This document shows, one piece after another, positions 4,634 through 31,114 of a stretch of 64,000 bases of DNA (its first letter is position 1; each line of letters begins with the position of its first letter). The translations under genes were made by a program, and so were the position numbers. A model generated the notes under the pieces. It had not been told where the DNA came from. It saw nothing but the letters and a program-made list of their open reading frames with translations, and made no database searches. The DNA is from an uncultured Acidobacteriota bacterium (GTDB lineage: Bacteria > Acidobacteriota > Terriglobia > Terriglobales > Acidobacteriaceae). The stretch is from contig CAWGBX010000005.1 in the NCBI GenBank assembly GCA_963820925.1, positions 208,605-272,604 of the forward strand. The letters run 5' to 3'.

Positions 4634-5311
4634 ATGGCAAGCGTACTCCTTCTGTTCAAGTTCTTTGCGCTTGGTGTCAGTGCGCTCCTGCCGGTGATTA
4701 ATCCGCTGGGGTCGGCATTGGTGTTCCTCGGCTTCGTGGGGAACGCGCCCGAATCCGTTTTCCGGGACTTAGCGCGCAAGATTGCGGTCAGCACCGCGAT
4801 CTTCATGCTGGTGATCGAGTTGGTGGGAACCGGGCTGTTGGAGTTTTTTGGAATTTCGCTTCCCGTAGTGCAGGTTGCCGGAGGACTGGTGCTGGCCAGC
4901 ATGGGATGGAACCTGCTCAATCAGCAGGAAAGCACGGCCAATCCCGATCGGGCAGCAGTGAGGGAGGATAACTTCGGATCGGTGGAGCAGAATGTTTTCT
5001 ATCCGCTCACATTTCCGGTTACTGTCGGCCCGGGCTGCATCGTGGTCATGCTGACTCTTACGGCGCACGCCTCGGTGAAGGGGAGTGTGCTGGCCAATGT
5101 CATCGCTCACCTGGGGATTTTCCTGGCTGTGGTGGCTTTGAGCGTGACCGTCCTTATCTGCTACCGTTACGCGCCGAAGATCACAGAACGAATTTCACCT
5201 CATACGGCGCATGGTATCTTGCGCATCATCGCGTTCGTGCTTCTCTGCATCGGAGTGCAGATCACGTGGAACGGCGTTGAAACACTACTGAAGGGGGTGC
5301 TGTTTTTGTAG
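4634..5311 (+). CDS. MarC-family (UPF0056) integral membrane protein
   Basis: 225 aa, ~6 predicted TM segments, N-terminal FALGVSALLPVINPLGSALVFLG resembles the MarC family signature. Confidence 0.5.
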   Translation: MASVLLLFKFFALGVSALLPVINPLGSALVFLGFVGNAPESVFRDLARKIAVSTAIFMLVIELVGTGLLEFFGISLPVVQVAGGLVLASMGWNLLNQQESTANPDRAAVREDNFGSVEQNVFYPLTFPVTVGPGCIVVMLTLTAHASVKGSVLANVIAHLGIFLAVVALSVTVLICYRYAPKITERISPHTAHGILRIIAFVLLCIGVQITWNGVETLLKGVLFL

Positions 5312-5696: not shown

Positions 5697-6761
5697 ATGG
5701 GAACAGCTACGGTTCCATATGGCCGGTCTACGCAAAAAGCACCGGCGGTCAAAGAGGTGCACATAGTCTGGATCACCGCCGGCCTCGGCTGTGACGGAGA
5801 TTCGGTCTCGATTACTGCGGCCACGCAACCCAGCATCGAAGACGTATTATTGGGCGCAATCCCTGGATTGCCCAAGGTGCACCTGCACAATCCCGTGCTT
5901 GCCGTCGAAGTTGGCGATGACTTCATGAAGTTTTTCTATCAGGCATGGGAAGGCAAGCTCGATCCTTTCGTTCTGGTGGTGGAAGGCTCGATCCCGAACG
6001 AGTCGATCAAGAAAGAAGGATATTGGGCGGCATTGGGAACTGACCCCGAAACCAAACAGCCAATCACCACCAATGAGTGGATCGACCGGTTGGCTCCGAA
6101 GGCGTTGGCGGTGATTGCCATTGGAACCTGCGCCACTTACGGCGGAATTCACGCCATGGAGGGGAACCCCACCGGCTGCATGGGTCTTGCTGATTACCTG
6201 GGTTGGGAGTGGCGGTCCAAAGCCGGGTTGCCGATCGTGAACGTTCCGGGATGTCCGGTGCAGCCCGACAACTTCATGGAGACGGTGCTATACCTGCTGT
6301 ATCAGGTGGCAGGGTTGGCCCCGATGATTCCTTTGGATGATCAACTGCGCCCAACCTGGCTGTTCGGCAGTACCGTGCATGATGGTTGCGACCGAGCCGG
6401 GTACTACGAGCAAGGTGATTTCGCAGAGGTCTATGGCTCTCCCAAGTGCATCGTAAAACTCGGATGCTGGGGACCGGTGGTCAACTGCAACGTACCCAAG
6501 CGCGGATGGATGGCCGGGATTGGCGGCTGCCCCAACGTGGGCGGCATCTGCATCGGTTGCACCATGCCGGGCTTTCCGGACAAGTTTATGCCGTTCATGG
6601 ATGAGCCGCCGGGGGCAAGGGTTTCGACCGGCAGCATCGGCGTGTATGGGCGTGCGATCCGGGCGTTGCGTTCAATCACTCAAAGCACGGTAAACAAGGA
6701 ACCCAAATGGCGGCATCCCCGCGCGGAGCTGACCACCGGTTACCATCCAAGATCTTATTAG
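5697..6761 (+). CDS. hhyS: [NiFe]-hydrogenase small subunit, group 1h/5 (high-affinity uptake hydrogenase), no Tat signal
   Basis: Same conserved Cys blocks as 1120-2163; ATG at 5697 has RBS GGAAGGGAG (the track ATG at 5676 lies inside the RBS); directly followed by the large subunit. Confidence 0.85.
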   Translation: MGTATVPYGRSTQKAPAVKEVHIVWITAGLGCDGDSVSITAATQPSIEDVLLGAIPGLPKVHLHNPVLAVEVGDDFMKFFYQAWEGKLDPFVLVVEGSIPNESIKKEGYWAALGTDPETKQPITTNEWIDRLAPKALAVIAIGTCATYGGIHAMEGNPTGCMGLADYLGWEWRSKAGLPIVNVPGCPVQPDNFMETVLYLLYQVAGLAPMIPLDDQLRPTWLFGSTVHDGCDRAGYYEQGDFAEVYGSPKCIVKLGCWGPVVNCNVPKRGWMAGIGGCPNVGGICIGCTMPGFPDKFMPFMDEPPGARVSTGSIGVYGRAIRALRSITQSTVNKEPKWRHPRAELTTGYHPRSY

Positions 6762-6807
6762 GAGCATGGCTGAGAAGCGCGACTGAGAAAGCAAAGGAGC
6801 GATCGCT

Positions 6808-8604
6808 ATGAGCACCATCACTGCACCGACGAAAGACGTCCCCAGCAAATCGAAAAAGCTGGTGGAGATGAATTGGGATCCGATCACCCGCATCGTAGGC
6901 AGCCTGGGTATCTTTACCAAGATTGATTTCGACGCTCGCAAGGTGGCCGAGTGTCACAGCACATCTTCCATCTTTCGCGGATACAGCATTTTTATGAAGG
7001 GGAAAGATCCGCGTGACGCGCACTTCATTACCAGCCGTATCTGCGGCATCTGCGGCGACAACCATGCAACCTGCGCAACTTATGCGCAGAATATGGCTTT
7101 TGGGGTCAGGCCGCCGCACATCGCGGAATGGATCGTTAATCTTGGCGAAGCGGCCGAATACATGTTCGATCACAACATCTTCCAGGACAACCTGGTCGGG
7201 GTTGACTTCTGTGAGCAGATGGTCAAGGAAACCAACCCCAAGGTTCTGGCGAAAGCCGAGTCAACTCCTGCGCCACATTCCAACGAGCACGGCTTCCGCA
7301 CCATCGCGGATATCATGCGGGCGCTCAATCCCTTCACAGGATCCTTTTATCTTGAAGCTCTGCAGATGAGCCGCATGACCCGGGAGATGTTCTGCCTGAT
7401 GGAAGGCCGTCACGTCCATCCCTCAACGCTTTATCCGGGCGGAGTAGGGACAGTGCCGACGGTGCAGCTGTTCACCGACTACATCGTCAGACTGATGAAA
7501 TACGTCGAGTTCATGAAGAAGGTTCTCCCGCTGCACGACGACCTGTTCGACTTCTTCTACGACGCGTTGCCGGGTTATGAGGAGGTCGGACGTCGCCGCG
7601 TTCTATTGGGATGCTGGGGGTCCTTTAACGATCCCGAGCACTGTGACTACACCTACAAGAACATGACGAACTGGGGCCGGAAGATGTTTGTTACGCCCGG
7701 TGTGGTTGTCGATGGCAAGCTGGTAACAACCGACCTGGTGGACATCAACCTGAATATTCGGATCCTGTTGGGCAGTTCTTACTATGACGACTGGAAGAAT
7801 GCAGAGACGTTCGTGAAAACCGATCCGCTGGGAAACCCGGTCGATAAGAACCATCCCTGGAATCAGACTACGATTCCGCGGCCGCAGAAGCGAGATTTCT
7901 CCGGCAAATACACCTGGGTGATGTCACCTCGCTGGTTCGACAAACGCACAGGAGATCATCTTGCCCTGGATACGGGCGGCGGGCCGATTGCCCGGCTGTG
8001 GGCAACGGCGCTCGCGGGGTTGGTGGATATCGGCTACATCAAAGCTACCGGCAAGAGCGTGAAGATCTACTTGCCGAAAACCATGTCAAAGCCCGAGGTC
8101 GAGTTCGAGTGGAAGATCCCGCAGTGGAGCAATGCTATTGAGCGCGACCGGGCTCGCACGTACTTCCAAGCCTACGCAGCCGCGTGTGCTCTGCATTTCG
8201 CGGAGAAGGCGCTGGAAGAACTTCATGCTGGCAAGACCAGAACCTGGTCAGAATTCAAGGTGCCGGAAGAGGCCATCGGCTGCGGTTTCCACGAAGCCGT
8301 CCGAGGCGTGCTTTCGCATCATGTGGTGATCCGCAAAGGCAAAATCGCCAACTATCATCCTTATCCTCCGACGCCTTGGAACGCCAATCCGCGGGACATT
8401 TACGGCACTCCGGGGCCGTATGAGGATGCGGTGCAAAATACGCCCATCTTCGAAGAAAACGGACCGGAGAAGTTCAAGGGCATAGACATTATGCGCGCGG
8501 TGCGGAGCTTTGATCCGTGTTTGCCTTGCGGCGTGCATATGTATCTGGGTGATGGAAAGGTTTTGAAGACCCACCATTCCCCGATGTTCGGTGTTCAGCC
8601 TTGA
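6808..8604 (+). CDS. hhyL: [NiFe]-hydrogenase large subunit, group 1h/5 (high-affinity H2-oxidizing)
   Basis: 598 aa; L1 motif TSRICGICGDNH and C-terminal SFDPCLPCGVH (Ni-Fe ligands), which I recall as group 5/1h signatures; RBS AAAGGAG upstream. Confidence 0.9.
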   Translation: MSTITAPTKDVPSKSKKLVEMNWDPITRIVGSLGIFTKIDFDARKVAECHSTSSIFRGYSIFMKGKDPRDAHFITSRICGICGDNHATCATYAQNMAFGVRPPHIAEWIVNLGEAAEYMFDHNIFQDNLVGVDFCEQMVKETNPKVLAKAESTPAPHSNEHGFRTIADIMRALNPFTGSFYLEALQMSRMTREMFCLMEGRHVHPSTLYPGGVGTVPTVQLFTDYIVRLMKYVEFMKKVLPLHDDLFDFFYDALPGYEEVGRRRVLLGCWGSFNDPEHCDYTYKNMTNWGRKMFVTPGVVVDGKLVTTDLVDINLNIRILLGSSYYDDWKNAETFVKTDPLGNPVDKNHPWNQTTIPRPQKRDFSGKYTWVMSPRWFDKRTGDHLALDTGGGPIARLWATALAGLVDIGYIKATGKSVKIYLPKTMSKPEVEFEWKIPQWSNAIERDRARTYFQAYAAACALHFAEKALEELHAGKTRTWSEFKVPEEAIGCGFHEAVRGVLSHHVVIRKGKIANYHPYPPTPWNANPRDIYGTPGPYEDAVQNTPIFEENGPEKFKGIDIMRAVRSFDPCLPCGVHMYLGDGKVLKTHHSPMFGVQP

Positions 8605-8749
8605 TCGAATGGGAAACTGATCATGCTGGACATTTGGGGAAGCGAGGGTATATTGGTTGCCTTTACTGCTTTGGGGAACTCTGACCAGTACAAATTTTGG
8701 CTGGGCTGCACAAACGTGAGCGCCCGCGCCTACATTGGCTGGAAACACT

Positions 8750-9316
8750 ATGCCGGATGACAAGGATTTCCAGGTTAAGGTCCAGCGCATCGGCGAACTA
8801 GTCGGTGAGTTGGAGAACATCGCGGATCCAGAGGCTCGGGCAAGCGCAAAAGCTTTGGTGCAATTGCTTCTTGACTTGCATGGCGCTGGCTTGGAACGGA
8901 TCATGGAAATCGTCGCGAAGGACGGCGATCCAGGCCAGCACACGATCGACGACTTGGGTTGCGATCCGCTGGTCAGCAGCCTCCTGGTCCTCTATGGCCT
9001 TCACCCCTTGGATTTGGAGAGTCGGGTAGCACAGGCGGTGGAGCGAGTTCGGCCGCAAGTGCGCAAGAGCGGAGGCGAACTAGATCTGCTCGGCATCGAG
9101 AGCGGCGTGGTCCGGTTGCAGCTTCAAGTTACCGGGCACGGCTGCGCCTCCACGGGAAAGACGCTTCAGAAGTTAGTCGAGGACTTATTATACGAAGCCG
9201 CACCGGACATGAATCGCTTGCTGATTGAAGGGCTCGAAGAAGCGGCAGGTTCCTCCGGCTTTGTGCCGCTCGGTAAGCTGGGCGGCGTGAACGCAACCGC
9301 ATCAGTGCAGGAGTAA
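8750..9316 (+). CDS. NifU/Nfu C-terminal-domain-like protein (possible HhyE-like hydrogenase-associated Fe-S/assembly protein)
   Basis: C-terminal LDLLGIESGVVRLQLQVTGHGCASTGKTLQKLVEDLL resembles the Nfu fold (V..L.G.C..C with only one Cys retained); position immediately after hhyL; track TTG start at 8735, ATG at 8750 preferred. Confidence 0.45.
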   Translation: MPDDKDFQVKVQRIGELVGELENIADPEARASAKALVQLLLDLHGAGLERIMEIVAKDGDPGQHTIDDLGCDPLVSSLLVLYGLHPLDLESRVAQAVERVRPQVRKSGGELDLLGIESGVVRLQLQVTGHGCASTGKTLQKLVEDLLYEAAPDMNRLLIEGLEEAAGSSGFVPLGKLGGVNATASVQE

Positions 9317-9336
9317 CCGTTCGTGGCGTTACGAAA

Positions 9337-10026
9337 TTGGCGCCGGGTCAGAGAATTGTTCGTGAGCCGATGATAAATGCAGTCCAGCCGGGATTCGAGA
9401 ACGCATTTGGAGCGCTCCGCCAGTTCATCCGGCGCAAGCGGAATGTGGAGCGTTGTGAGCTGTGCAGCGCTGAAGTCGCAGCCGATCATCCGCATCTGAT
9501 TGAACCGGGGAGCCGAAAGCTGCTGTGCGCCTGTAACGCCTGCGCAATCCTATTCAGCGGGATGGGGACAAAATATAAGCGTGTTCCCCGTCGCGTCCTC
9601 GCCCTGGCAGATTTTCGCCTCTCGGACGGCCAGTGGGACAGCCTGATGGTACCGATCAGTATGACTTTCTTCTTCCGTAGCACTCCGGATGCCAGGGTGG
9701 TCGCGTTCTATCCCAGCCCGGCGGGGGCGACTGAGTCGCTGCTGCCGCTCGAGACCTGGCAAGACATCGAGGACGCCAATCCTGTGCTCAAGGAAATGGA
9801 ATCTGATGTTGAAGCTCTGCTCGTCAATCGCGTGGGCCATGTCCGCGGATTTGCTGCTCCCGAGTACTATGTGCTCCCTATCGACGAGTGTTACAAACTG
9901 GTCGGCCTGATTCGCGCCAACTGGCGAGGGCTTTCCGGAGGAGCCGAGGTCTGGCAGGAGATCGGCCGTTTCTTCGACGGACTGAAAGACCGAGCCACGC
10001 TGGTCAGAGAGGAAGCGAATGCCTGA
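9337..10026 (+). CDS. Hydrogenase-cluster conserved hypothetical protein with CxxC...CxCxxC motif (putative metal-binding)
   Basis: CELCSAEV...LLCACNAC; translationally coupled into the next gene (8-nt overlap); no recognisable catalytic domain. Confidence 0.6.
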   Translation: MAPGQRIVREPMINAVQPGFENAFGALRQFIRRKRNVERCELCSAEVAADHPHLIEPGSRKLLCACNACAILFSGMGTKYKRVPRRVLALADFRLSDGQWDSLMVPISMTFFFRSTPDARVVAFYPSPAGATESLLPLETWQDIEDANPVLKEMESDVEALLVNRVGHVRGFAAPEYYVLPIDECYKLVGLIRANWRGLSGGAEVWQEIGRFFDGLKDRATLVREEANA

Positions 10027-10669
10027 CCTGAGCTTTCAAATCGAGAAAGCGGAACCACAGCGCTTCACGGTTGCGCCGACCCTCCTGTTCAAACTCCGAA
10101 TTACGAACACGGTTGCGAATGAAACCGTCCATTCGGTCGCATTGCGCTGCCAGATCCAGATTGAAGTAACGCGGCGGCAGTATAGTGCCGGGGACCAAGA
10201 GCAACTGCGTGACCTTTTTGGGGAGACGGAACGCTGGGGCCAGACTCTGAAAACCATGCTGTGGACCCATGCCAGCGTGGTCGCGCCCGCATTTCAGGAC
10301 ACCGCCGTAGTGGATCTTCCTGTGCCTTGTACCTTCGACTTCAATGTGGCTGCGACTAAGTACTTCCATGGCCTTGCGGATGGCGACGTCCCCCTCTGTT
10401 TTCTGTTCAGCGGAACAGTTTTTTATGCAAATGGTGACGGAGCACTGCAAGTAGGCCCGATCCCTTGGGATAAGGAAGCCCACTTCCGGCTTCCGGTGAA
10501 ATCGTGGCGCGAAATGATAGACATCTACTATCCCAATAGCGCATGGCTCTGTTTGCGCCGGGATGTTTTCGAGCGACTCTATCAGTACAAGGTTGAGCAC
10601 GGCATTCCGACCTGGGAGCAAGCGTTGGAGAGCATGCTTCCTGCGCTGGAAGAGGCAGTGAAGCGATGA
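10019..10669 (+). CDS. Hydrogenase-cluster conserved hypothetical protein
   Basis: ATG with RBS GAGGAAG; ATGA overlap with downstream gene; diverse composition, no shadow-ORF signature. Confidence 0.6.
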   Translation: MPDLSFQIEKAEPQRFTVAPTLLFKLRITNTVANETVHSVALRCQIQIEVTRRQYSAGDQEQLRDLFGETERWGQTLKTMLWTHASVVAPAFQDTAVVDLPVPCTFDFNVAATKYFHGLADGDVPLCFLFSGTVFYANGDGALQVGPIPWDKEAHFRLPVKSWREMIDIYYPNSAWLCLRRDVFERLYQYKVEHGIPTWEQALESMLPALEEAVKR

Positions 10670-11724
10670 ATACGAAATCAGTCAACGCAATCGCGAATGC
10701 CGTGCTCTACGAGGGGTACATGCTCTACCCCTACCGCCCTTCCTCGGTGAAAAACCGTCAGCGGTTCAACTTCGGCGTGCTTTATCCCAGGTCCTACAGT
10801 GATACACAGACTGGTTCAGATGTCTGCAGCATGCAGACCGAGTGCCTTGTCCAAGGTTCTTTTCTCACTGCAGTCGAGGTAAGAGTGCGTTTCCTCAAGA
10901 TGGTCGCACGTTCGGTTCGCAAGGTAACAGAACCAATGCAATCACCGGATGTCGGTCTCGGTTTCGAGCCCGTTCCGCTTCTCGAGGTCGACGGCAAGGT
11001 ATTCGCGCCCTGGCAGGAGGCAATCGAATGTGAAGTAACCGTACCGGCTTGCAATCTGGATTCGTTGACTGAAGCGCCGCTTGAACGGAAATTCGAATTT
11101 CCCCCGAAAGAGGAAACGGAATTCTTACGCGACGCGACCGACCGCCTCGTAGGCCTGATTGCAAGGAGGCAGGAATCGGTCCAAGGGATAGTTGAGATGG
11201 TGGCGTTGCGCGTTGCCGGCGAACTGTTCAAAGTCCACGTGCGGGTGAAGAACCTCACCTCTTTTGGAGACGACTCCGTCCAGACCAGCCGGGACACAGC
11301 TTTGATGCGATCGCTGGTCTCCACTCACATCCTGCTAGGCGCAGTGGATGGTCGGTTTGTCTCTCTGCTGGAGCCGCCCGACAATCTGAGAGATCTCGCC
11401 ACGAGCTGCCAGAATGTCGGAGCCTGGCCGGTGTTGGTCGGCGCCGAAGGAGAGCAGGACACAATACTTGCCTCACCCATCATTCTCTACGATTACCCGC
11501 AAATTGCGCCGGAAAGCCCCGGCGACTTGTTCGACGGAACGGAGATTGATGAGATTCTCGCGTTGCGCATTCTGACCATGACCGACGACGAGAAGCGCGA
11601 AATGCGTAGCACGGACGAGCGTGCCCGCAAAATGCTCGACAGAACGGAAACTCTGCCGATGGAGCAGCTGTTGAAGCTCCACGGTACGTTGAGGGAATTG
11701 CGTTCGTTGAAGGAGATGCCATGA
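10666..11724 (+). CDS. Hydrogenase-cluster conserved hypothetical protein (352 aa)
   Basis: Start/stop overlaps (ATGA) with both neighbours indicate a coupled operon. Confidence 0.6.
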   Translation: MNTKSVNAIANAVLYEGYMLYPYRPSSVKNRQRFNFGVLYPRSYSDTQTGSDVCSMQTECLVQGSFLTAVEVRVRFLKMVARSVRKVTEPMQSPDVGLGFEPVPLLEVDGKVFAPWQEAIECEVTVPACNLDSLTEAPLERKFEFPPKEETEFLRDATDRLVGLIARRQESVQGIVEMVALRVAGELFKVHVRVKNLTSFGDDSVQTSRDTALMRSLVSTHILLGAVDGRFVSLLEPPDNLRDLATSCQNVGAWPVLVGAEGEQDTILASPIILYDYPQIAPESPGDLFDGTEIDEILALRILTMTDDEKREMRSTDERARKMLDRTETLPMEQLLKLHGTLRELRSLKEMP

Positions 11725-12575
11725 ACGAATGGGAATGGCAGCTCCTCGAAGCCAAAAAACCGGTGGACGACCTGCGTATTTCGGATATCGAGGTGCGACC
11801 CGGCAGCCGGGTTAGATTGTGCCCGCGAGCGGGCGGCGACATCATGGATATTGCGCTCGCGGGTAAGACCGCCGTTATCGAGTCGATCGAACAGGACTAT
11901 GACGGTAAGGTCCACGTTTGCGTTGTCATCGATGAGGATCCGGGGCGGGACATCGGCCTGATGCGACAACCAGGTCACCGTTTCTTCTTCGATCCGGACG
12001 AAGTTGAACCGCTCCCCCGCGGTGACGATGAAGATGCCGAGCGGGCGAAGATGCCCCGGATCCTCATCGCTGGCATTGGAAATATATTTCTCGGGGATGA
12101 CGCTTTTGGTATCGAGGTGGTGCGGCGCTTGTCGACACAAGAGCTGCCACAGAACATTCGAGTGACTGACTTCGGCATCCGGGGTTACGACTTGGCCTAC
12201 GCGCTACTCGATGGATACGACACCACCATCCTGGTTGACGCGTGTCCGCGCGGCGAACCGGCGGGCACGCTATATGTGATTGAACCCGACGTGAGCGAGT
12301 TTGGTGGGCCAGAAGAGCGGCAGAATGCGGTCGAAGCTCATAGCATGAACCCCTTGAATGTGCTGCGTCTCGCGACCTCTATGGGCGGTCCGCTGAAGCG
12401 AGTCCTACTGGTTGGATGTGAGCCGGGAACCCTCGGTCCGGAGGAAGGTCAGATGGGGCTGAGTGAACCGGTCGAGGCTGCCGTCGATGAAGCGGTGAAA
12501 TTGGTGAAATCGCTGATTGCCAAGATACTGAATGGGGATGAATCCGGTACAAAGAACGTAAACGACATTCAATGA
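11721..12575 (+). CDS. Hydrogenase maturation endopeptidase (HupD/HyaD/HycI family) with ~115-aa N-terminal extension of unknown function
   Basis: C-terminal half ILIAGIGNIFLGDDAFGIEVV...ILVDACPRG...HSMNP matches the large-subunit C-terminal processing protease; N-terminal 115 aa has no match I recognise. Confidence 0.75.
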   Translation: MNEWEWQLLEAKKPVDDLRISDIEVRPGSRVRLCPRAGGDIMDIALAGKTAVIESIEQDYDGKVHVCVVIDEDPGRDIGLMRQPGHRFFFDPDEVEPLPRGDDEDAERAKMPRILIAGIGNIFLGDDAFGIEVVRRLSTQELPQNIRVTDFGIRGYDLAYALLDGYDTTILVDACPRGEPAGTLYVIEPDVSEFGGPEERQNAVEAHSMNPLNVLRLATSMGGPLKRVLLVGCEPGTLGPEEGQMGLSEPVEAAVDEAVKLVKSLIAKILNGDESGTKNVNDIQ

Positions 12576-12587
12576 GAGGAGACTGCC

Positions 12588-12800
12588 GTGGCCATGGAAT
12601 TCTCTGAAGGTAGCAACAACAATGGAAGCGACAAGGAAACGTTGTACATGCTCGGTGGAGCAGCCCTTATTCTGTTTGGGACAGGATTGATCCTTTCCAA
12701 CCCAATCGTCCGGCGTTATCTCGGGCAACTGGGAGTCGGCAATCTTGTGCAGGCTGCCTTGCCGGATGTTGATCGGTATCTGAAGCTGCGGGCTATGTGA
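12588..12800 (+). CDS. Small (70 aa) single-pass membrane protein, hypothetical
   Basis: RBS GAGAGGAGA upstream; one hydrophobic segment LYMLGGAALILFGTGLILS. Confidence 0.35.
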   Translation: MAMEFSEGSNNNGSDKETLYMLGGAALILFGTGLILSNPIVRRYLGQLGVGNLVQAALPDVDRYLKLRAM

Positions 12801-12813
12801 CGCCTGGACAATA

Positions 12814-13386
12814 ATGGGATTAACGACACAAACTAGCGTTCATTACGTCACGGACACGAGAGCCAGCCAATTCACGGTGCAGGTATTCTCCGGCGGACTG
12901 CTGTCGGCTTTCGGTCACAGTCCAACCATCGCCATCCGTGACTTCGTGGGCGAGGTAGAAGTGAACCCCGATGATCTCCAGCGCTCTTCTCTCAGAGTTA
13001 CGATCCAGCCATCGTCGTTGACGGTGAGGGACGATATTTCCGACAAGGATCGGCGGGACATGGAGTTGGCCATGCAGCAGGAGATTCTTGAGATATCGGC
13101 CTATCCCGAGATCATTTATGAGTGCTCGAACATCAGCGTCACCAAAGCCGGCGAAGGGCAGTACTCGATCACCCTCAATGGCGAGTTGACTCTGCACGGC
13201 GTTACTCGTTCTCAGATTGTCCCCGCACGACTGGTGCTGGCCGAGGATTCGCTGCGGGCCTTTGGGACCTTTTCACTTTTGCAGACCGATTATCATTTGA
13301 AACTGGCGTCCGTCGCCGGGGGCGCGCTGAAGGTGAAAGACGAATTGAAGTTTTCATTTAACATCCTGGCTCGAAAGAAAGAGTGA
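12814..13386 (+). CDS. YceI-like (polyisoprenoid-binding) domain protein
   Basis: Length 190 aa and pattern QFTVQVFSGG...LTLHGVT...TDYHLK typical of the YceI fold. Confidence 0.55.
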   Translation: MGLTTQTSVHYVTDTRASQFTVQVFSGGLLSAFGHSPTIAIRDFVGEVEVNPDDLQRSSLRVTIQPSSLTVRDDISDKDRRDMELAMQQEILEISAYPEIIYECSNISVTKAGEGQYSITLNGELTLHGVTRSQIVPARLVLAEDSLRAFGTFSLLQTDYHLKLASVAGGALKVKDELKFSFNILARKKE

Positions 13387-13431
13387 ACGCGTGCACAGGA
13401 AGAATCAGCCATCGTGGGGAGAAGAGCTGAC

Positions 13432-13725
13432 ATGTGCTTAGCCATACCGGGGCAAATCGTTGAACTTTTTCCTGACCAACCGAACGCCGCGCTGATTGAC
13501 GTGGTGGGTGTCCGGCGCAAGGTTGATTTGGGACTCCTGCAGGACAACTTGCCGGTGAAGGGAGACTGGGTCCTCATCCATGTTGGGTTTGCCATGAGCA
13601 AGATCAGCGAGGAAGACGCTCTGGACCAGATGCGTACGCTCCGAATGCTGGGAGAGGCCGACGCCGCGATGCAAGAAATTGAAGGTTATGGACTAGACGA
13701 TGCCGCGAACCAGAAAGCGTCGTGA
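13432..13725 (+). CDS. hypC: Hydrogenase maturation factor HypC
   Basis: Starts MCLAIPGQIVE (essential N-terminal Cys2); RBS GGGAGAAGAG; track ORF begins 18 nt upstream at 13414. Confidence 0.85.
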   Translation: MCLAIPGQIVELFPDQPNAALIDVVGVRRKVDLGLLQDNLPVKGDWVLIHVGFAMSKISEEDALDQMRTLRMLGEADAAMQEIEGYGLDDAANQKAS

Positions 13726-13750
13726 AGCATCTTAACGTGGCAAACAAGGA

Positions 13751-14887
13751 TTGGGTATGAAGTTCGTGGACGAGTTTCGCGATCCTGAAGTCATCACCAA
13801 GACGTCGGAAGAAATCCGCCGGCTGGCCGATCCCAATCGCCATTACCGCATCATGGAAGTGTGCGGCGGCCATACGCACGCGATTTACCGCTTTGGCCTG
13901 AAAGATCTGCTTCCGTCGAACATAGAACTTATTCACGGCCCGGGTTGCCCAGTCTGCGTGCTCCCGATGGGACGAATCGACGACGGTCTGTCCATCGCGC
14001 AACAGCCCGACGTTATCTTCGCCGCATTCGGCGACATGATGAGGGTCCCGGGCACGCAAGGCAGTCCTCTCGAGCATAAGGCCCGCGGGATGGATGTTCG
14101 CATCGTCTATTCACCTTCTGACGCGCTCAAGCTTGCTCAAGTAAATCCGGACAAGCACGTCATGTTCTTTGCTATCGGATTTGAGACCACGGCTCCGTCA
14201 ACCGCGCTGACACTGGTGCGAGCGAAGACTCAGGGCATCCACAATTTTTCCGTGTTCTGTAATCACGTAACCATTATTCCGGCAATCCGGGCGATTCTGG
14301 ATTCTCCAGACATGCGTATTGACGCGTTCATCGGGCCCGGGCACGTATCGACCGTGATTGGTTGCCGGCCTTATGAATGGATCGCCAAGAACGAAAACAA
14401 ACCGGTCGCCGTCTCCGGCTTCGAGCCGCTGGATATTCTGCAGTCCATTGTCATGGTTCTGCGTCAACTGAAGGCGGATGAGGCCAGGATCGAAAATCAG
14501 TACAAGCGCGTAGTGCCGTGGGAAGGAAATCGGGCTGCGCTCAGGGCCATGGCAGACGTTTTCGAGTTGCGTCCCTATTTTGAGTGGAGAGGACTCGGCT
14601 TCATCTCTCAGTCAGCCCTGCGCATCCGGGAAACGTATGCAGAGTGGGATGCCGAGCAGCGTTTCCACATTCCCGGAGTGCGGGTGACCGATCCCAAGGC
14701 TGCGCAATGCGGGGAAGTGTTGAAAGGTGTGCTCAAACCTCATCAATGCAAGCTCTTTGGCAAGGAGTGTACTCCTGAACATCCGATTGGTGCACTCATG
14801 GTTTCATCAGAGGGATCATGCGCAGCGTACTTCAACTACGAACACCGCAAAACGGCAATGGTGCCCAGCATAGCGTCGGTGGCCTGA
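13751..14887 (+). CDS. hypD: Hydrogenase maturation factor HypD
   Basis: CGGHTHAIY, GPGCPVCV and C-terminal CPVC-type motifs; 378 aa. Confidence 0.9.
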   Translation: MGMKFVDEFRDPEVITKTSEEIRRLADPNRHYRIMEVCGGHTHAIYRFGLKDLLPSNIELIHGPGCPVCVLPMGRIDDGLSIAQQPDVIFAAFGDMMRVPGTQGSPLEHKARGMDVRIVYSPSDALKLAQVNPDKHVMFFAIGFETTAPSTALTLVRAKTQGIHNFSVFCNHVTIIPAIRAILDSPDMRIDAFIGPGHVSTVIGCRPYEWIAKNENKPVAVSGFEPLDILQSIVMVLRQLKADEARIENQYKRVVPWEGNRAALRAMADVFELRPYFEWRGLGFISQSALRIRETYAEWDAEQRFHIPGVRVTDPKAAQCGEVLKGVLKPHQCKLFGKECTPEHPIGALMVSSEGSCAAYFNYEHRKTAMVPSIASVA

Positions 14888-14961
14888 ACGCTGCCGAGGC
14901 CGATGGCTCGGCCATCGACAACAACGCACCGAAGGTGCACTTCCGCGAGCCGCAAATCGAG

Positions 14962-15954
14962 ATGGCTCACGGAGCCGGAGGTAAGGCCAGCCGCCGGCTC
15001 GTAGAAGGTCTTTTTGCTCCGCTTCTTTTTGTGCCGTCCTCAGAACCGCTGGGAGATGCGGCCCATCTGGATTTCAACGGTACCCGGATCGCCATTACCA
15101 CTGATAGTTTCGTAGTCAAGCCCCTGAGTTTTCCTGGCGGCTCGATCGGAGAACTCGCAGTGAACGGAACCGTGAACGATCTGGCGGTTTCGGGAGCGAG
15201 AGCGGAAGCCATGGTAGTCACTTATGTGCTCGAAGCTGGGCTGCCGACGCCTGTGCTCGAGGCCGAAGTACGCGCAATGGGGAACGCAGCACGCAACGCC
15301 GGTGTCGCGATCGCGGGTGGCGACACAAAAGTTGTCGAGCACGGCAAAGCCGATTCTATGTACATCACGACGACCGGAATTGGGCGACCTCTGCATTGGT
15401 TGAATATCGATCCGAGATCCGTTCGTCCGGGCGACAGGATTCTGCTCTCCGGCCCAATCGGCGATCACGGTATCACTATTCTTCTGGCGCGTGGGGAACT
15501 CGATCTTGAAGCTGACCTTCGTTCTGACACGCGCTCCGTACTTCCTCTGGTTGAAGCTCTGGTGAAGGCGGCAGGTCCCGGCATCCGCTGGATGCGCGAC
15601 CCGACGCGCGGCGGTGTGGCCACTTCCCTAAACGAACTTGTTCGCGACTGCGGGTGTGGAATTGTGCTCCTGGAGGAAATGATTCCAATACATGATGCTG
15701 TTCGTGGCGCTTGCGAGTTGTTGGGGCTCGATCCATTGCATATTGCAAATGAAGGCCAATTCCTCGCCGTAGTGGCCCCGGAATACGCGGACGCCGCCCT
15801 CAACGCCTTGACTCTTGCTCCTGGTGGCGAGGATGCGCAGATGATTGGGGAGGTGCGTGAACAGCCGTCCGGCGCGGTCTTGGTCACGACACGTTACGGT
15901 GGGAGCAGGATTATAGATATGCTGGTCGGCGATCCGCTCCCGCGCATTTGTTAG
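14962..15954 (+). CDS. hypE: Hydrogenase maturation factor HypE (carbamoyl dehydratase)
   Basis: MAHGAGGKAS N-terminus and C-terminal ...PRIC; track ORF starts at 14818 overlapping hypD; ATG at 14962 gives canonical 330-aa HypE. Confidence 0.85.
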   Translation: MAHGAGGKASRRLVEGLFAPLLFVPSSEPLGDAAHLDFNGTRIAITTDSFVVKPLSFPGGSIGELAVNGTVNDLAVSGARAEAMVVTYVLEAGLPTPVLEAEVRAMGNAARNAGVAIAGGDTKVVEHGKADSMYITTTGIGRPLHWLNIDPRSVRPGDRILLSGPIGDHGITILLARGELDLEADLRSDTRSVLPLVEALVKAAGPGIRWMRDPTRGGVATSLNELVRDCGCGIVLLEEMIPIHDAVRGACELLGLDPLHIANEGQFLAVVAPEYADAALNALTLAPGGEDAQMIGEVREQPSGAVLVTTRYGGSRIIDMLVGDPLPRIC

Positions 15955-15961
15955 AAACGCA

Positions 15962-17164
15962 TTGGTTAGGAATATTGCGATGGCGACAGTTTGTGGACTG
16001 GCAGCTCAAGTGGAAGAGCGCCTGCTCACCCGGAACCAGATTGTCGAGGAGTTTTTCTCTCGCGAGGCATTCCGCCTCGCTGAAGCTTGCCGCTCCATGT
16101 CCGAGCGTTTCCTGCAGGGAGGGCGGCTGCTTGCCTTTGGACGTGGCCCCTACGCAACCGACGCCCAACATGTCTCCGTCGAATTTGTTCATCCTGTGAT
16201 CGTGGGAAAGCGCGCTCTGCCTGCCCTGGATATTTCCATCCAATTCCGGCCCTGGCTGGAAGCAATACTCCATCCTGAAGATATTGTTATGGGATTTGGC
16301 CCTCCAGAGGGGGACGAGGAGATTCGATCCGCGGTCAACTTTGCCCATGCGCGAAACGCACTGACCTTCGCTCTTCCCGGCGTTGAAGGGTCGTACGCGG
16401 TCGAGGCTTTCACTCAGGATCCATTCATTCACCAGGAAATGATTGAGATCCTTTACCACACGCTGTGGGAAAGTGTGCATGTCTTCCTGGAACATCGCGA
16501 ACTGGGCCATGACGTAGGAGAAGCCGGATTTCTGTACCCATTTCTTGGTCGGGAAAGGCAGGAGACCGACGTTTTGGTGTCTGAGGTAGCGGCCTCGATC
16601 CGGATGAAGGTGCAAGATGATTCAAGGCTGCGTGCACAAGTGGCGCGTGAGCAGGCTGAACAGATCAGCAGCGCGGCCGTTGCGATTCACGAACGTCTGT
16701 CGAAAGGCGGCAAGCTCGTCCTCTTCGGCAACGGCGGGTCGGCGACGGACGCGAACGATTGGGCCATCGACTGCGTGCTTCCTCCGTCGGGCTATCGTCC
16801 TGTTCCAGCAGTCTCGCTCTCGCTCGAGCCAGCGAATATCAGCGCGATCGCGAACGATGTCGGTACAGACGTCATTTTCCTTCGCCAACTCATCGCACAG
16901 GCCCGCCCGGACGACGTTGCCATCGGAATTTCCACCAGCGGCGGATCACGCAACATCATCATGGCGCTGGAAGAAGCGCGTAAGCGAAATATGCTGACCG
17001 TCGCTTTGCTGGGTTATGACGGCGGCGAGATCAAGCGTCGCCGGTTGGCGGACTTTCCCATTGTTGTGCAATGCGATTACATACCGCGCATCCAGGAAGT
17101 GCAAGCTTCGATCTACCACATTATCCGCGAAACCTTGGAGGTATTACGCCGTGGCGAAGCTTGA
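15962..17164 (+). CDS. Tandem SIS-domain protein (GmhA/DiaA-like phosphosugar-binding fold) embedded in the hyp cluster
   Basis: Two SIS-like blocks: LLAFGRGPYATDAQHVSVEF and KLVLFGNGGSATDANDWAIDC ... ISTSGGSRNII. Confidence 0.55.
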   Translation: MVRNIAMATVCGLAAQVEERLLTRNQIVEEFFSREAFRLAEACRSMSERFLQGGRLLAFGRGPYATDAQHVSVEFVHPVIVGKRALPALDISIQFRPWLEAILHPEDIVMGFGPPEGDEEIRSAVNFAHARNALTFALPGVEGSYAVEAFTQDPFIHQEMIEILYHTLWESVHVFLEHRELGHDVGEAGFLYPFLGRERQETDVLVSEVAASIRMKVQDDSRLRAQVAREQAEQISSAAVAIHERLSKGGKLVLFGNGGSATDANDWAIDCVLPPSGYRPVPAVSLSLEPANISAIANDVGTDVIFLRQLIAQARPDDVAIGISTSGGSRNIIMALEEARKRNMLTVALLGYDGGEIKRRRLADFPIVVQCDYIPRIQEVQASIYHIIRETLEVLRRGEA

Positions 17165-17387
17165 ACTCTACGGTACAGCGCGCTGCCCGCATACTCAGGA
17201 GATGCGGGAATGGCTGGAGTGGCAGCGCCGCGATTTCGTTGAGTACGATGTCGAGGCCGACCTTGCCGCCCGTCACCGCATGCGCGGGGTAGCGGCTGGA
17301 CACCGAAGTGTTCCTGTGTTGGTCGAAGATGGCAAGGTGGTTCAAATCGGCTGGCAGGGCCGTAGTTGCGTGGTGGATGTGGAGTAA
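17151..17387 (+). CDS. Glutaredoxin-like small thioredoxin-fold protein (single-Cys CPHT motif)
   Basis: LELYGTARCPHTQEMREWLE...VPVLVEDGKVVQIG; GTG at 17151 with RBS GGAGGT; track ORF 17016 overlaps the previous gene for 150 nt. Confidence 0.5.
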   Translation: MAKLELYGTARCPHTQEMREWLEWQRRDFVEYDVEADLAARHRMRGVAAGHRSVPVLVEDGKVVQIGWQGRSCVVDVE

Positions 17388-17389
17388 CG

Positions 17390-19663
17390 ATGGCAAGCGC
17401 CTGCTCGATCCGAGTTCGCGGCGTTGTGCAAGGCGTTGGCTTCCGCCCGTTCGTCTATCGTCTCGCACGCGCCAATACCCTCGCCGGATGGGTACTGAAC
17501 GGCGAGGAGGGGGTTGAGATTTACCTGGAAGGTAGCGAACCAAGACTGCAGGCTTTTGTTCACGACCTGAAAACACAGCCTCCCCCCGCCGCCAGCATCG
17601 CGGACATCGAGGTCCATTCCGCAGCCCCGGTCGGTCTGAACGACTTCACCATCCGTGAGAGCAAACGGCGCGAGCGGCCTACTGCTCGCATCTCCCCCGA
17701 CCTCCCTGTCTGCGATGCTTGTCTGAAAGAGCTTTTTGATCCAGGGGACCGGCGCTACTGGTATCCCTACATTAACTGTACGAACTGTGGTCCGCGCTAC
17801 ACGGTTGTCCTTGGTCTTCCTTACGACCGACCTAACACTACGATGCAGCACTGGTTGCTCGACGACTACTGCGCCGCGGAATATCAAGATCCGGGCGATC
17901 GCCGTTTTCACGCGCAGCCGGTTGCCTGCCCGATCTGCGGCCCGAGCTATTTCCTTCGTCCTCACGATGGGGCCATGCATGGAAATGAAGCAAGCATTCG
18001 CAAAGCGGTTGAATTGCTTAACAGCGGCAATATCCTCGCGGTGAAAGGGCTGGGCGGATACCATTTGGCCTGCGACGCCGGGAATCCCGCGACTGTCGCG
18101 GCTTTGCGCGAACGCAAATATCGCAAGGAAAAACCGTTTGCGCTCATGGCAAGAGACCTCGAAGTTGCCCGCAAGTTGATCGAGCTTTCAGAGGAATCCG
18201 AAAACCTGCTGATGTCCAGTGCGCGACCCATCGTGCTTGCGCCGGCGAAAGTGAAACTCACTGGAGTTGCACCAGAAAACGGTGAACTCGGAGTGATGCT
18301 GCCCTACACCCCTTTGCACCACTTGCTCTTCGCGGCTGGTGCGCCCGAATCGCTGGTAATGACGAGCGCAAATCGCTCCAGTGAACCGATCGCCTATGAA
18401 GATGAAGAAGCGCTTGACCGCCTTGCGGGCATCGCTGATGCATTCTTGATCGGGCAGCGTCCAATCGCACGACGAGTTGATGACTCCGTGGCCCGGGTGG
18501 GAGTGTTTGGTCCAGCAATTCTTCGACGCTCACGGGGCTATGCTCCCGGCGCCGTTGCGACATTTCCGACGGAGCGCCCGATTTTAGCCGTGGGCGGCGA
18601 CCTGAAAAACACAATCACACTGGTTGTGGACGGCCAAGCATTCGTCAGCCAGCACATCGGCGATTTGGGACATTACCAGTCGCTCCGCGCCTTCCAAGAA
18701 ACTATCCAAGATCTGACGGCAATGTATGACGTTCGCCTCGAGGAACTGGTGGTGGTACACGATTCTCACCCGCAGTACGTCTCCACAGCGCACGCCCTCA
18801 CCCTGGGAGTTCCGCAACCGCTGACAGTGCAGCACCACCGTGCACATATTGCGTCCGTGCTGGCGGAGCGGGGCGAATGGGAAACTCGCGTTGCGGGGGT
18901 CAGCTTTGACGGTACCGGCTACGGCGATGATGGCAGCATTTGGGGCGGCGAGATCTTCGTAGGAAGCATCAAAGCGGGTTTTGAGAGGGTGGCCCATTTA
19001 CGCAGTGCCTCGCTGCCAGGCGGTGACGCTGCGGCGCAGTTTCCGGTTCAGGCCGCAGCTGGTTTCCTGGCGGAGTTGGACGGCTTGCCCGACTTGACAG
19101 GCGCGCCCTTCGGTCTTTCCGAGCGCTACCAAAATGCTTGCGAATTAATTCAGAAGGGCGTGCGGACTTTTGCTACTACTTCCATCGGGCGACTGTTTGA
19201 CGCAGCGGCTGCACTTCTTGGTTTTACCCGTGAGGTTACGTTTGAAGGCCAGGCCGCGATGTGGCTAGAACAACTCGCCCGGAGCGTCCCTTTGACCGAA
19301 CCATATCCTTTTCCGCAGATGGGTGAGGAATTGGATTTTCGGCCGTTACTTCAATGTGTAGTTCGTGACCGGCTTCGTGGCCGGGACCGTCGAGAGATTG
19401 CACGTGCTTTCCAGCTTGGTCTTGCTCAAGGCCTGCGCGACGCCCTGGTCGCCATTTGCAACGCACAGGATCTTGAAATCGTGGTCCTCTCAGGAGGCGT
19501 TTTCCAGAACGAGTTACTGCTCAAGGATCTAAAGTGTTTGCTTGAGAACGAGACTTTGCAGATTTGGACAAATCATGCCGTTCCACCCAATGATGGCGGG
19601 ATCAGCCTGGGGCAGGCGGCGATGGCGGCATTTGACCGATCTGGTGGGCATCACGAGCAGTAG
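17390..19663 (+). CDS. hypF: Carbamoyltransferase HypF
   Basis: Acylphosphatase domain (IRVRGVVQGVGFRPFV), two Zn-finger CxxC pairs, YrdC-like and Kae1-like regions; 757 aa. Confidence 0.9.
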   Translation: MASACSIRVRGVVQGVGFRPFVYRLARANTLAGWVLNGEEGVEIYLEGSEPRLQAFVHDLKTQPPPAASIADIEVHSAAPVGLNDFTIRESKRRERPTARISPDLPVCDACLKELFDPGDRRYWYPYINCTNCGPRYTVVLGLPYDRPNTTMQHWLLDDYCAAEYQDPGDRRFHAQPVACPICGPSYFLRPHDGAMHGNEASIRKAVELLNSGNILAVKGLGGYHLACDAGNPATVAALRERKYRKEKPFALMARDLEVARKLIELSEESENLLMSSARPIVLAPAKVKLTGVAPENGELGVMLPYTPLHHLLFAAGAPESLVMTSANRSSEPIAYEDEEALDRLAGIADAFLIGQRPIARRVDDSVARVGVFGPAILRRSRGYAPGAVATFPTERPILAVGGDLKNTITLVVDGQAFVSQHIGDLGHYQSLRAFQETIQDLTAMYDVRLEELVVVHDSHPQYVSTAHALTLGVPQPLTVQHHRAHIASVLAERGEWETRVAGVSFDGTGYGDDGSIWGGEIFVGSIKAGFERVAHLRSASLPGGDAAAQFPVQAAAGFLAELDGLPDLTGAPFGLSERYQNACELIQKGVRTFATTSIGRLFDAAAALLGFTREVTFEGQAAMWLEQLARSVPLTEPYPFPQMGEELDFRPLLQCVVRDRLRGRDRREIARAFQLGLAQGLRDALVAICNAQDLEIVVLSGGVFQNELLLKDLKCLLENETLQIWTNHAVPPNDGGISLGQAAMAAFDRSGGHHEQ

Positions 19664-19669
19664 GAGACT

Positions 19670-20035
19670 ATGCACGAACTTTCTATTGCGATGAGCATCG
19701 TTGAGATGGCGCAAGAAGAAGCCGAGCAGCGAGGTGGTGCTCAAGTCAGTGCCGTCCACCTCAGGCTGGGGGCGTTGTCAGGCGTGGTGAAAGAGGCCTT
19801 GCTCTCGTGTTATGAAATGGCATGCGACGGCACTCCGTTGAGAGATTCGCGCTTGATCGTGGAGGACATTCCCGTCGTAGTCTTTTGTTCAAATTGCCGG
19901 GAGCAGCGGCCACTCAGTTCCATTCAATTGTTTTGTTGCGCTGAATGTGGCACACCTACGTCTGAGATTGTGCAAGGTAAGGAAATCGAGGTCGTTGCAT
20001 TGGAGATACAGGAATGGGCTCACAACCCCGCTTAG
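19670..20035 (+). CDS. hypA: Hydrogenase nickel-incorporation protein HypA
   Basis: Starts MHELSIA; CxxC...CxxC zinc site near C-terminus. Confidence 0.85.
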   Translation: MHELSIAMSIVEMAQEEAEQRGGAQVSAVHLRLGALSGVVKEALLSCYEMACDGTPLRDSRLIVEDIPVVVFCSNCREQRPLSSIQLFCCAECGTPTSEIVQGKEIEVVALEIQEWAHNPA

Positions 20036-20697
20036 TCGAAGTCAGAAAGAATGTTCTGAAACAGAATGATTTGGCGGCTCGCGCCCTTCGCGAACAGTTC
20101 CGCGCCGCCGGAGTCTTTGTTGTGAGCCTTGTATCAAGTCCCGGCTCAGGCAAGACCGCGTTCCTTGAAAGAACCCTCACGCTGCTTCGTCAGAGTTACA
20201 GTGTTGCCGCGCTGGTCGGAGACCTTGCCACTGAAAACGATGCGATGCGGCTGGCGCGCAGCCAGGCCCCGGTCAAACAAATCACCACCGGCACTCTATG
20301 CCATCTCGAAGCCGCCATGGTCCAGAACGCGCTCGCGGGATGGGATCTCAATCATCTGGATTTTCTATTCATCGAAAATGTTGGGAACCTGGTCTGTCCT
20401 TCGTCCTACGATTTGGGCGAGAACCTGCGTCTGGTGCTCATTTCCGTGACGGAGGGCGAGGACAAGCCGCTCAAATACCCCACAATTTTCAACAGTGCCG
20501 ATGTGGCTGTGGTCACGAAGATGGACTTGGCGCCGGCGGTTGAGTTCGATTGGGATACGGCGTACGGCAATATCCAAGCGGTGCGCCCGGGGATGCAGGT
20601 TCTCAAGCTCTCCGCGAAGACCGGGCACGGGATGGAAGAATACTTAGATTTTCTGACGGCCCGCCTGGATGAGTTGCGAGTGGCAACAGCTCAGTGA
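20014..20697 (+). CDS. hypB: Hydrogenase nickel-incorporation GTPase HypB
   Basis: P-loop GSGKTAFLE; no His-rich stretch; overlaps hypA by 22 nt. Confidence 0.85.
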   Translation: MGSQPRLVEVRKNVLKQNDLAARALREQFRAAGVFVVSLVSSPGSGKTAFLERTLTLLRQSYSVAALVGDLATENDAMRLARSQAPVKQITTGTLCHLEAAMVQNALAGWDLNHLDFLFIENVGNLVCPSSYDLGENLRLVLISVTEGEDKPLKYPTIFNSADVAVVTKMDLAPAVEFDWDTAYGNIQAVRPGMQVLKLSAKTGHGMEEYLDFLTARLDELRVATAQ

Positions 20698-30986: not shown

Positions 30987-31114
30987 CTGGATGAAATATT
31001 ATCCGTTTTAACGACCATTGTCAAGACGGACGTTCTCCCTTTCCCGCACTTTATAGGTGTGCGTAAGATTTTCGAGCTGAGGATAGGAAACACGAGAAGA
31101 GTTTGAGTCTCGCG

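Follow-up and report, generated by a model that had tools for sequence, protein, structure and literature searches.

Atmospheric H2 has its main biological sink in the group 1h [NiFe]-hydrogenases, which also help dormant soil bacteria to survive. Among the described systems, the 'actinobacterial' hydrogenase (AH) locus on plasmid pHG1 of Cupriavidus necator runs from hofK/hofG (PHG064/065) through PHG066-069 and PHG070, the hupD gene, to hypF3C2D2E2A3B3. PHG066-069 were reported as open reading frames (ORFs) without assigned function (PMC4377017), hhaABC serves as a name for conserved hypothetical proteins (PMC6776052), and as late as 2025 there was still mention of 'four CDS of unknown function' (PMC12319191). 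In Mycobacterium smegmatis, HhyE (MSMEG_2718) is required for the activity of the hydrogenase Hhy (PMC6883350), and in Acidobacteria the loci of Pyrinomonas methylaliphatogenes, Edaphobacter aggregans and Acidobacteriaceae KBS 83 combine the group 1h hhySL genes with maturation and accessory genes (PMC8027828). Here we analyse a stretch of 64,000 nucleotides (nt) from an uncultured bacterium of the Acidobacteriaceae (contig CAWGBX010000005.1 of assembly GCA_963820925.1, positions 208,605 to 272,604), which as a whole we call the window. Its + strand carries, in one long gene run from ~1.0 to 20.7 kb, what is, as judged from the sequence, a complete locus for a cytoplasmic high-affinity uptake [NiFe]-hydrogenase of group 1h (Hhy, or 'actinobacterial-type'), arranged in the way that is standard for Acidobacteria. 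The locus is an ordinary member of an already known kind and adds no new kind of system. Nonetheless, its comparison with related loci sharpens two questions, namely what the four to five conserved companion genes do and how the enzyme feeds the respiratory chain without a membrane subunit, and leads to two testable hypotheses on genes that have long been unassigned. The first, to which we give a probability of about 0.55, is that the NifU-like protein, HhaA, HhaB, HhaC and a small domain that we call X form a dedicated cytoplasmic module, which would assemble the enzyme in air together with its C-terminal endopeptidase.

Comparison of the window ORFs with the Pfam and NCBIfam models recovered, on the + strand and at the same positions, every gene that had been called in an initial annotation of the region, made from the sequence alone. 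The structural genes hhyS (5676/5697-6761, with ATG 5697 as the likely start) and hhyL (6808-8604) encode close relatives of the crystallised C. necator enzyme (PDB 5AA5). HhyL is 83% identical to HofG (chain 5AA5_C) and scores 1184 bits against it versus 155 against the next hydrogenase, a margin of roughly 1000 bits, and HhyS is 77% identical to HofK (5AA5_A), with 655 bits versus 172 for the next match. The group 1h/5 class proposed in the initial annotation is thus settled as far as a sequence can settle it, with the placement derived from the 83% identity to the structurally characterised HofG. The signatures on which that proposal had been based are exact: L1 (TSRICGICGDNH) is found at HhyL amino acids (aa) 75-86 (nt 7030-7065) and L2 (SFDPCLPCGVH) at aa 567-577 (nt 8506-8538), and both motifs are quoted identically for group 1h/5 in the literature (PMC5364354). 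The reported lack of a twin-arginine translocation (Tat) signal in HhyS also stands, as there is no RRxF[LIV]K motif and the alignment to the crystallised HofK chain begins at residue 10. Behind the L2 motif and the processing His, HhyL has a C-terminal extension of 21 aa. Of the 603 aa encoded by the C. necator large-subunit gene, the crystallised chain retains 579 and stops at the conserved His, which shows that the orthologue is indeed processed by proteolysis. The motif GLGCDGD at aa 36 of HhyS, identical in HofK and in a second small subunit described below, has an Asp in place of the second Cys of the proximal-cluster motif, and from the 5AA5 structure we take this Asp to be a cluster ligand.

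The NifU-like gene (PF01106) and the three translationally coupled ORFs that had been noted after hhyL are confirmed, with overlaps of 8 nt and 4 nt (ATGA) between the latter. They had been suspected to be conserved accessory genes of hhy operons, and this proved correct: the three ORFs match PHG067-069/hhaABC, and together with the NifU-like gene we assign them as orthologues of PHG066-069/hhaABC and as companions of the group 1h enzymes in the four lineages that we compared (Acidobacteriota, Betaproteobacteria, Alphaproteobacteria and Actinomycetota). For the Acidobacteriota, a genome scan seeded with HhaC provided the best 80 loci, all from this phylum, and the 66 with full flanks were used for the counts; the comparison with other bacterial classes was drawn from a plasmid collection of 72,556 records. 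The order hhyS-hhyL-NifU-like-DUF5947-DUF6084-HhaC-protease is kept in 66/66 full-length acidobacterial loci, and the core order is found also on C. necator pHG1 and on plasmids of Mycobacterium intracellulare, Streptomyces fungicidicus and Methylocystis parvus, so that homologues of the three ORFs are present in all 66 acidobacterial and in four other-class hydrogenase loci. When the plasmids were searched with hhyL, 13 of the 72,556 were found to carry a group 1h large subunit; HhaC and DUF5947 accompany it in 13/13 and DUF6084 in 11/13, and no plasmid in the collection carries HhaC and DUF5947 without hhyL. The only hhyL plasmids without a detectable DUF6084 are NC_016113.1 and NC_017585.1 of Streptantibioticus cattleyicolor, in which the locus is rearranged, with HhaC on the opposite flank of hhyL. 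Two contigs with unexpected host labels, L076 (DATHNC010000010.1, 'Candidatus Saccharimonadales') and L033 (DASRWO010000132.1, 'Candidatus Deferrimicrobiaceae'), contain typical acidobacterial-type hhy clusters with HhaC 53-64% identical, and their host labels probably result from mis-binning rather than denote real hosts.

These data bear on the simplest alternative, namely that the ORFs of the accessory set are unrelated passengers or have been mis-called, for which only the absence of a functional annotation speaks. The ORFs have strong Pfam matches and co-occur with hhyL in strictly the same order, and their families number thousands of members under purifying selection, with 40-58% identity between the classes compared and with invariant motifs; this conservation effectively refutes the alternative. 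The statement in the initial annotation that the function of the accessory set is not understood still holds in all three reports cited above for PHG066-069 and hhaABC. In our literature search DUF5947 and DUF6893 were unmentioned, and DUF6084 appeared only incidentally, in a study of the Streptomyces aurodox gene cluster.

The NifU-like gene (8735-9316, likely start ATG 8750; 45.7 bits to PF01106, cutoff 27) encodes a 193-aa homologue of PHG066, 35% identical to the NifU-family protein of C. necator, which we interpret as a short form of HhyE, i.e. as belonging to the 'truncated HhyE' class of Islam et al. (PMC6883350). The mycobacterial HhyE, of ~300 aa, has a CxxC motif in the NifU domain (CKSC) and a C-terminal domain with two further CxxC motifs, whereas the window protein has neither: its NifU domain reads GHGCAS, with a single Cys and no CxxC, and the C-terminal domain is missing. 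The C. necator protein has no conserved Cys anywhere. The lack of the CxxC ligands in the window and C. necator proteins argues against a Cys-ligated iron-sulfur (FeS) electron carrier. A 'split HhyE', in which the NifU-like and DUF5947 proteins of the window would together correspond to the mycobacterial HhyE, was rejected, because Mycobacterium has the 300-aa NifU/HhyE protein plus a separate DUF5947.

HhaA, the homologue of PHG067 (DUF5947, 232 bits), is encoded by 9337-10026 and probably starts at ATG 9370, because its homologues are 217-219 aa long and cover 95% of the ORF. The CxxC...CxCxxC motif that had been noticed in one of the three ORFs is located here; in its full form, CxxC-x7-HxH-x10-CxCxxC (Cys5His2), it is invariant across all four bacterial classes compared. 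In an AlphaFold2 model (predicted local distance difference test, pLDDT, 77.6) the motif residues are situated in short beta-hairpins followed by a helix, and no solved relative was found for the remainder of the model fold. We infer that HhaA binds metal through its Cys5His2 motif and that its N-terminus resembles a zinc ribbon. HhaB, the homologue of PHG068 (10019-10669; DUF6084, PF19562, 306 bits), is 58% identical to the C. necator protein. HhaC (10666-11724, 352 aa) matches the first ~350 aa of PHG069 and has no Pfam or NCBIfam family, yet its own family comprises 3983 cluster representatives (at 50% identity) with E<=1e-3. It is predicted to form a beta-sandwich with highly conserved termini, which have low confidence in the monomer model; this could indicate that they fold only once a partner is bound.

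The protease gene is present at 11721-12575, as the initial annotation had implied for hupD, but its product, of 284 aa, is more than a protease. The C-terminal 170 aa (12036-12575) constitute the HupD/HycI-type maturation endopeptidase (PF01750 at aa 131-262, 51.4 bits, cutoff 23; TIGR00072, 115.6 bits, cutoff 47.45), in which the GDD, VDA and AHS positions are presumably the counterparts of the metal ligands of HybD. The N-terminal part (11721-12035) is a domain of ~100 aa, X, which is 55% identical (8e-30) to residues 377-469 of the 476-aa PHG069 protein, i.e. of the C. necator HhaC homologue. X is joined to HhaC in Cupriavidus, Mycobacterium, Streptomyces and Methylocystis, it is joined to the protease in the window and other Terriglobia, and it is a free ORF of ~110 aa in Blastocatellia. 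Moreover, two proteins from different 50%-identity clusters, P0399 and P0429, are HhaC-X-HycI triple fusions with natural linkers. Because such fusions recur, between HhaC and X as well as with the endopeptidase, HhaC is tied to the processing step of the large subunit. X has no match in Pfam or the PDB, and a relationship to HypC was rejected with an hhalign probability of 0.8%. Searches of all PDB sequences with the DUF5947, DUF6084, HhaC and X profiles returned nothing below E 0.09, and none of the four has a structural relative among the solved proteins; relaxed Pfam scans of the sub-domains revealed no further families, and hhalign tests for homology among the proteins gave probabilities of 0.8% for DUF6084 versus HhaC and 0.3% for DUF5947 versus DUF6084.

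The fusions of HhaC, X and the endopeptidase, together with the translational coupling of the genes between hhyL and the protease, suggest that the module most probably works at, or close to, the step in which the large subunit is processed. We propose that it would hold the HhyL precursor (and possibly also apo-HhyS) during or after the insertion of the cofactor and present the 21-aa C-terminal extension of HhyL to HupD, and that the processed HhyL would then be let go to pair with HhyS. Two further observations are in keeping with a role in assembly: profile searches of the PDB found the accessory proteins in none of the solved hydrogenase structures, and in C. necator the induction of the enzyme is accompanied by that of PHG066, PHG067 and the protease (PMC4377017). 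In addition, deletion of the mycobacterial hhyE abolishes the activity staining of Hhy even with an artificial acceptor (PMC6883350), which fits a role in assembly or stability better than that of a pure electron relay. The fusions that tie HhaC and the previously unremarked X to the protease lead to the prediction that mutants should exhibit a processing defect.

Several points weigh against this proposal. In Thermomicrobium, hhaABC belongs to the structural rather than the maturation operon and is induced more strongly than the maturation genes (PMC6776052), and the same operon argument was used by Islam et al. in favour of an electron-transfer role of HhyE (PMC6883350). The group 1h cluster of Methylacidiphilum was described with only hhyS, hhyL and hupD (PMC5364354), which suggests that the module may be dispensable in some lineages. 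A shallow alignment alone may account for the low confidence of the conserved HhaC termini, and a seeming DUF6084-HhaC fusion, P0311, had to be discarded as a probable frameshift artefact.

The maturation set had been described as full and uninterrupted. It is indeed full, with the protease and hypC, hypD, hypE, hypF, hypA and hypB all present, but it is interrupted by four embedded conserved genes, which the initial inventory overlooked along with the N-terminal domain of the protease: DUF6893 (12588-12800) and a YceI-like gene (12814-13386) lie between the protease and hypC, and a gene for a double-SIS protein (15962-17164) and a glutaredoxin-like ORF (~17151-17387) lie between hypE and hypF. 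We regard their products as further conserved accessories beside the module.

In the window, DUF6893 is a peptide of 70 aa with one transmembrane helix (PF21833, 28.9 bits, cutoff 24.6) and a conserved C-terminal tail, PDxxRYLKLRxM, for which the wider form is P-D-x-x-R/K-Y-L/M-K-L/I-R-x-M-stop. It is encoded in 64/66 acidobacterial loci, and versions of 33-39 aa, above the Pfam cutoff, occur in the loci of Cupriavidus, Mycobacterium and Streptomyces, in gaps that pass for 'intergenic' because the plasmid gene tables do not list the peptide. The codon differences in the tail are mostly silent (9674 synonymous versus 4580 nonsynonymous), and we consider DUF6893 to be, by its conservation, a real micro-protein. 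A short form of 33 aa (MKTTFKGLAVVLLCVAAVRFYPDLARYMRIRAM) is also found elsewhere in the hyp cluster of some Acidobacteriota (at ~16960-17059 in L079 and ~10640-10738 in L076).

The YceI-like protein has the polyisoprenoid-binding fold (PF04264, 56.2 bits, cutoff 23.7), and its profile matches the solved polyisoprenoid-binding proteins 5ixh, 7bwl, 1y0g, 1wub and 5w2d with E values from 1.4e-9 to 1e-4. Most characterised YceI proteins are periplasmic. The window protein has no signal peptide: its N-terminus, MGLTTQTSVHYVTDTRAS, is not hydrophobic, and the ORF cannot start further upstream because of the DUF6893 stop at 12800. The gene, directly downstream of DUF6893, is present in 65/66 acidobacterial loci, and none of the four loci of other classes has it; a literature search for YceI together with hydrogenase returned nothing relevant.

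DUF6893 as a membrane micro-protein and, in Acidobacteria, the YceI-like protein as a cytoplasmic lipid binder are concrete candidates for the coupling of the enzyme to membrane and quinone. In the main competing explanation, which we hold to be unlikely, it is the accessory proteins that would provide Hhy with its missing link to respiration. HhaA with its Cys5His2 motif and/or the NifU-like protein would then take electrons from the distal cluster of HhyS via a redox cofactor, HhaB, HhaC and DUF6893 would dock the soluble enzyme at the membrane, and the acidobacterial YceI-like protein would supply quinone. Such roles would suit an enzyme that lacks cytochrome b or any other known membrane subunit and for which HhyE has been proposed as the acceptor (PMC6883350), as well as the placement of the accessory genes with the structural ones (PMC6776052), the invariance of the Cys/His motif of DUF5947, the conservation of a transmembrane peptide across bacterial classes, the binding of polyisoprenoids by the YceI family and the precedents of quinone extraction by HucM (PMC10017518) and CoxG (PMC12202499). 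However, the partner in the recurrent fusions is the maturation protease rather than a redox or membrane protein, Cys ligands are missing from the NifU-like proteins of both the window and C. necator, and the loss of activity upon deletion of hhyE extends to an artificial acceptor (PMC6883350). On the Streptomyces fungicidicus plasmid (L083, 1086-1529), an SRPBCC-domain protein of the CoxG fold family is encoded ~2.6 kb upstream of hhyS, which may be a coincidence.

The second pair of embedded genes is likewise conserved. The double-SIS (GmhA-like) protein, of 400 aa, scores 87.6 bits against SIS_2; the GmhA models remain under their cutoff (TIGR00441, 142.8 bits versus 209.45), and the gene is therefore filed as a SIS-domain protein only. 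It is present in 62/66 acidobacterial loci, and a single-SIS homologue is located inside the hyp clusters of C. necator and Methylocystis. The small glutaredoxin-like protein (17151-17387, likely start GTG 17151) matches PF00462 above the cutoff and has the motif CPHT with a single Cys, in contrast to the dithiol CPYC type; its gene is present in 63/66 acidobacterial loci and, among the loci examined, is acidobacterial only.

The co-occurrence of NifU-like, glutaredoxin-like and Cys/His-rich proteins in one operon might also indicate that the module protects or repairs the FeS clusters or the Ni-Fe site of the O2-exposed enzyme after maturation, in long starvation, e.g. by re-insertion or re-reduction of damaged clusters with the help of the glutaredoxin-like and NifU-like proteins. 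Dormant cells use the enzyme in air, and the genes are co-induced with it under carbon limitation (PMC6776052, PMC4377017). Nevertheless, the glutaredoxin-like gene is confined to the acidobacterial loci, and the fusion with the endopeptidase points to a processing step that happens once; we find this explanation quite improbable and continue to favour the assembly of the enzyme as the task of the module.

The remaining maturation genes are arranged as follows: hypC (Pfam HupF_HypC) lies within 13414-15954 with its MCLAIPG start at 13432, hypD (511 bits to Pfam HypD) at 13751-14887, hypE (Pfam AIRS/AIRS_C) at 14818-15954, hypF (Pfam HypF domains) from 17366 onward with the likely start ATG 17390, hypA (Pfam HypA) at 19670-20035 and hypB (Pfam cobW/HypB) at 20014-20697. 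In the opposite direction, the functional unit reaches upstream of the point where the initial annotation began, with a second group 1h-type small subunit, hhyS2 (1060-2163, start codon uncertain; Pfam Oxidored_q6 and NiFe_hyd_SSU_C), and a two-component pair (2187-4479). The orphan hhyS2 has no adjoining large subunit; its product is 69% identical to HhyS and keeps all 11 Cys, the GLGCDGD motif and all cluster ligands. It is present in 58/66 acidobacterial loci, and an extra hhyS copy ~3.6 kb upstream has already been published for Acidobacteria (PMC8027828), a spacing that the window matches exactly (1060-2163 versus 5676). The pair consists of a PAS/HisKA_3 histidine kinase (2187-3800) and a NarL/LuxR-type response regulator (3790-4479), both identified with Pfam; the regulator occurs upstream of 58/66 and the kinase of 39/66 related loci, and by their position they are candidate regulators of the locus. 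The intervening MarC gene (4634-5311; Pfam/NCBIfam) is uncommon between regulator and hhyS (3/66 acidobacterial loci).

Scans of the region for promoters and terminators gave counts at or below the shuffled expectation. The best sigma-70-like match, TGGACA-16-TATATT (10/12, 8627-8654, +), is located in the 145-nt gap between hhyL and the NifU-like gene (8605-8749); in total, sites of this kind are just as numerous as shuffling leads one to expect, and an internal promoter at this position is only a hint. Elsewhere in the window, an ORF directly upstream of hhyS2 (84-896, +) encodes a cytochrome P460 domain fused to a cupredoxin-like domain, and two genes for BcrAD/BadFG-type ATPases ('CoA enzyme activase', DUF2229; 20749-24313, -) are convergent with the end of the hyp cluster. 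A single ORF of 666 aa (31008-33008, -) combines a DyP-type peroxidase (N- and C-terminal domains) with an encapsulin shell domain (Linocin_M18), and appears to be a cargo fused to its shell protein. Two giant ORFs, 47967-54572 (2201 aa) and 54885-62639 (2584 aa), both on the + strand, lie in a region of higher GC content (0.61) and strongly negative GC skew; the latter is rich in Kelch, PKD and Ig repeats and the former has no Pfam family.

With respect to the described systems, we found no substantive difference between the window and the acidobacterial hhy loci, and it appears to be an uncultured relative; HhaC of the window is 53-80% identical to that of related loci. With C. necator it shares the enzyme class, the order of the core genes, a SIS protein inside the hyp genes and DUF6893 after the protease. 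The two differ in the position of X, which in C. necator is the C-terminus of PHG069 (476 aa), next to a protease of 183 aa, and in the window the N-terminus of the 284-aa protease. They also differ in the SIS protein, which is single in C. necator and double in the window, in the order of the hyp genes, and in the YceI-like gene, the glutaredoxin-like gene and the second hhyS, all three of which are present in the window and absent from the C. necator locus. In M. smegmatis a NifU-like protein directly follows hhyL, as in the window, and in the mycobacterial plasmid locus the NifU-like protein is followed by DUF5947, DUF6084 and HhaC+X.

The proposed module is reminiscent of the O2-tolerant group 1d hydrogenases, in which enzyme-specific chaperones (HoxL/HupF, HoxV/HupK and HoxO/Q/R/T), encoded between the structural and hyp genes, serve the assembly in air. 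The likeness would be one of concept, drawn by analogy from established knowledge; in sequence we detected no relationship, and the Pfam families of the group 1d accessory proteins do not match HhaA, HhaB or HhaC. For the delivery of electrons, precedents of quinone supply to trace-gas oxidoreductases outside the membrane are provided by HucM of Huc (PMC10017518), a small scaffold in contact with the membrane, and by CoxG of the Mo-CO dehydrogenase (PMC12202499), a lipid-binding shuttle, each of which is a route for menaquinone. DUF6893, a transmembrane peptide of 33-70 aa, and the YceI-like protein, whose fold differs from the SRPBCC fold of CoxG, are not homologous to either, and could be compared to them by a purely functional analogy. 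Our second hypothesis, which we put forward as a doubtful one, is that DUF6893 is a membrane tether of the group 1h hydrogenases and that the signal-less acidobacterial YceI-like protein is a quinone-binding shuttle. If this were true, tether and shuttle would explain how electrons pass from a soluble enzyme to the respiratory chain, in the manner of HucM in Huc and of CoxG in the CO dehydrogenase.

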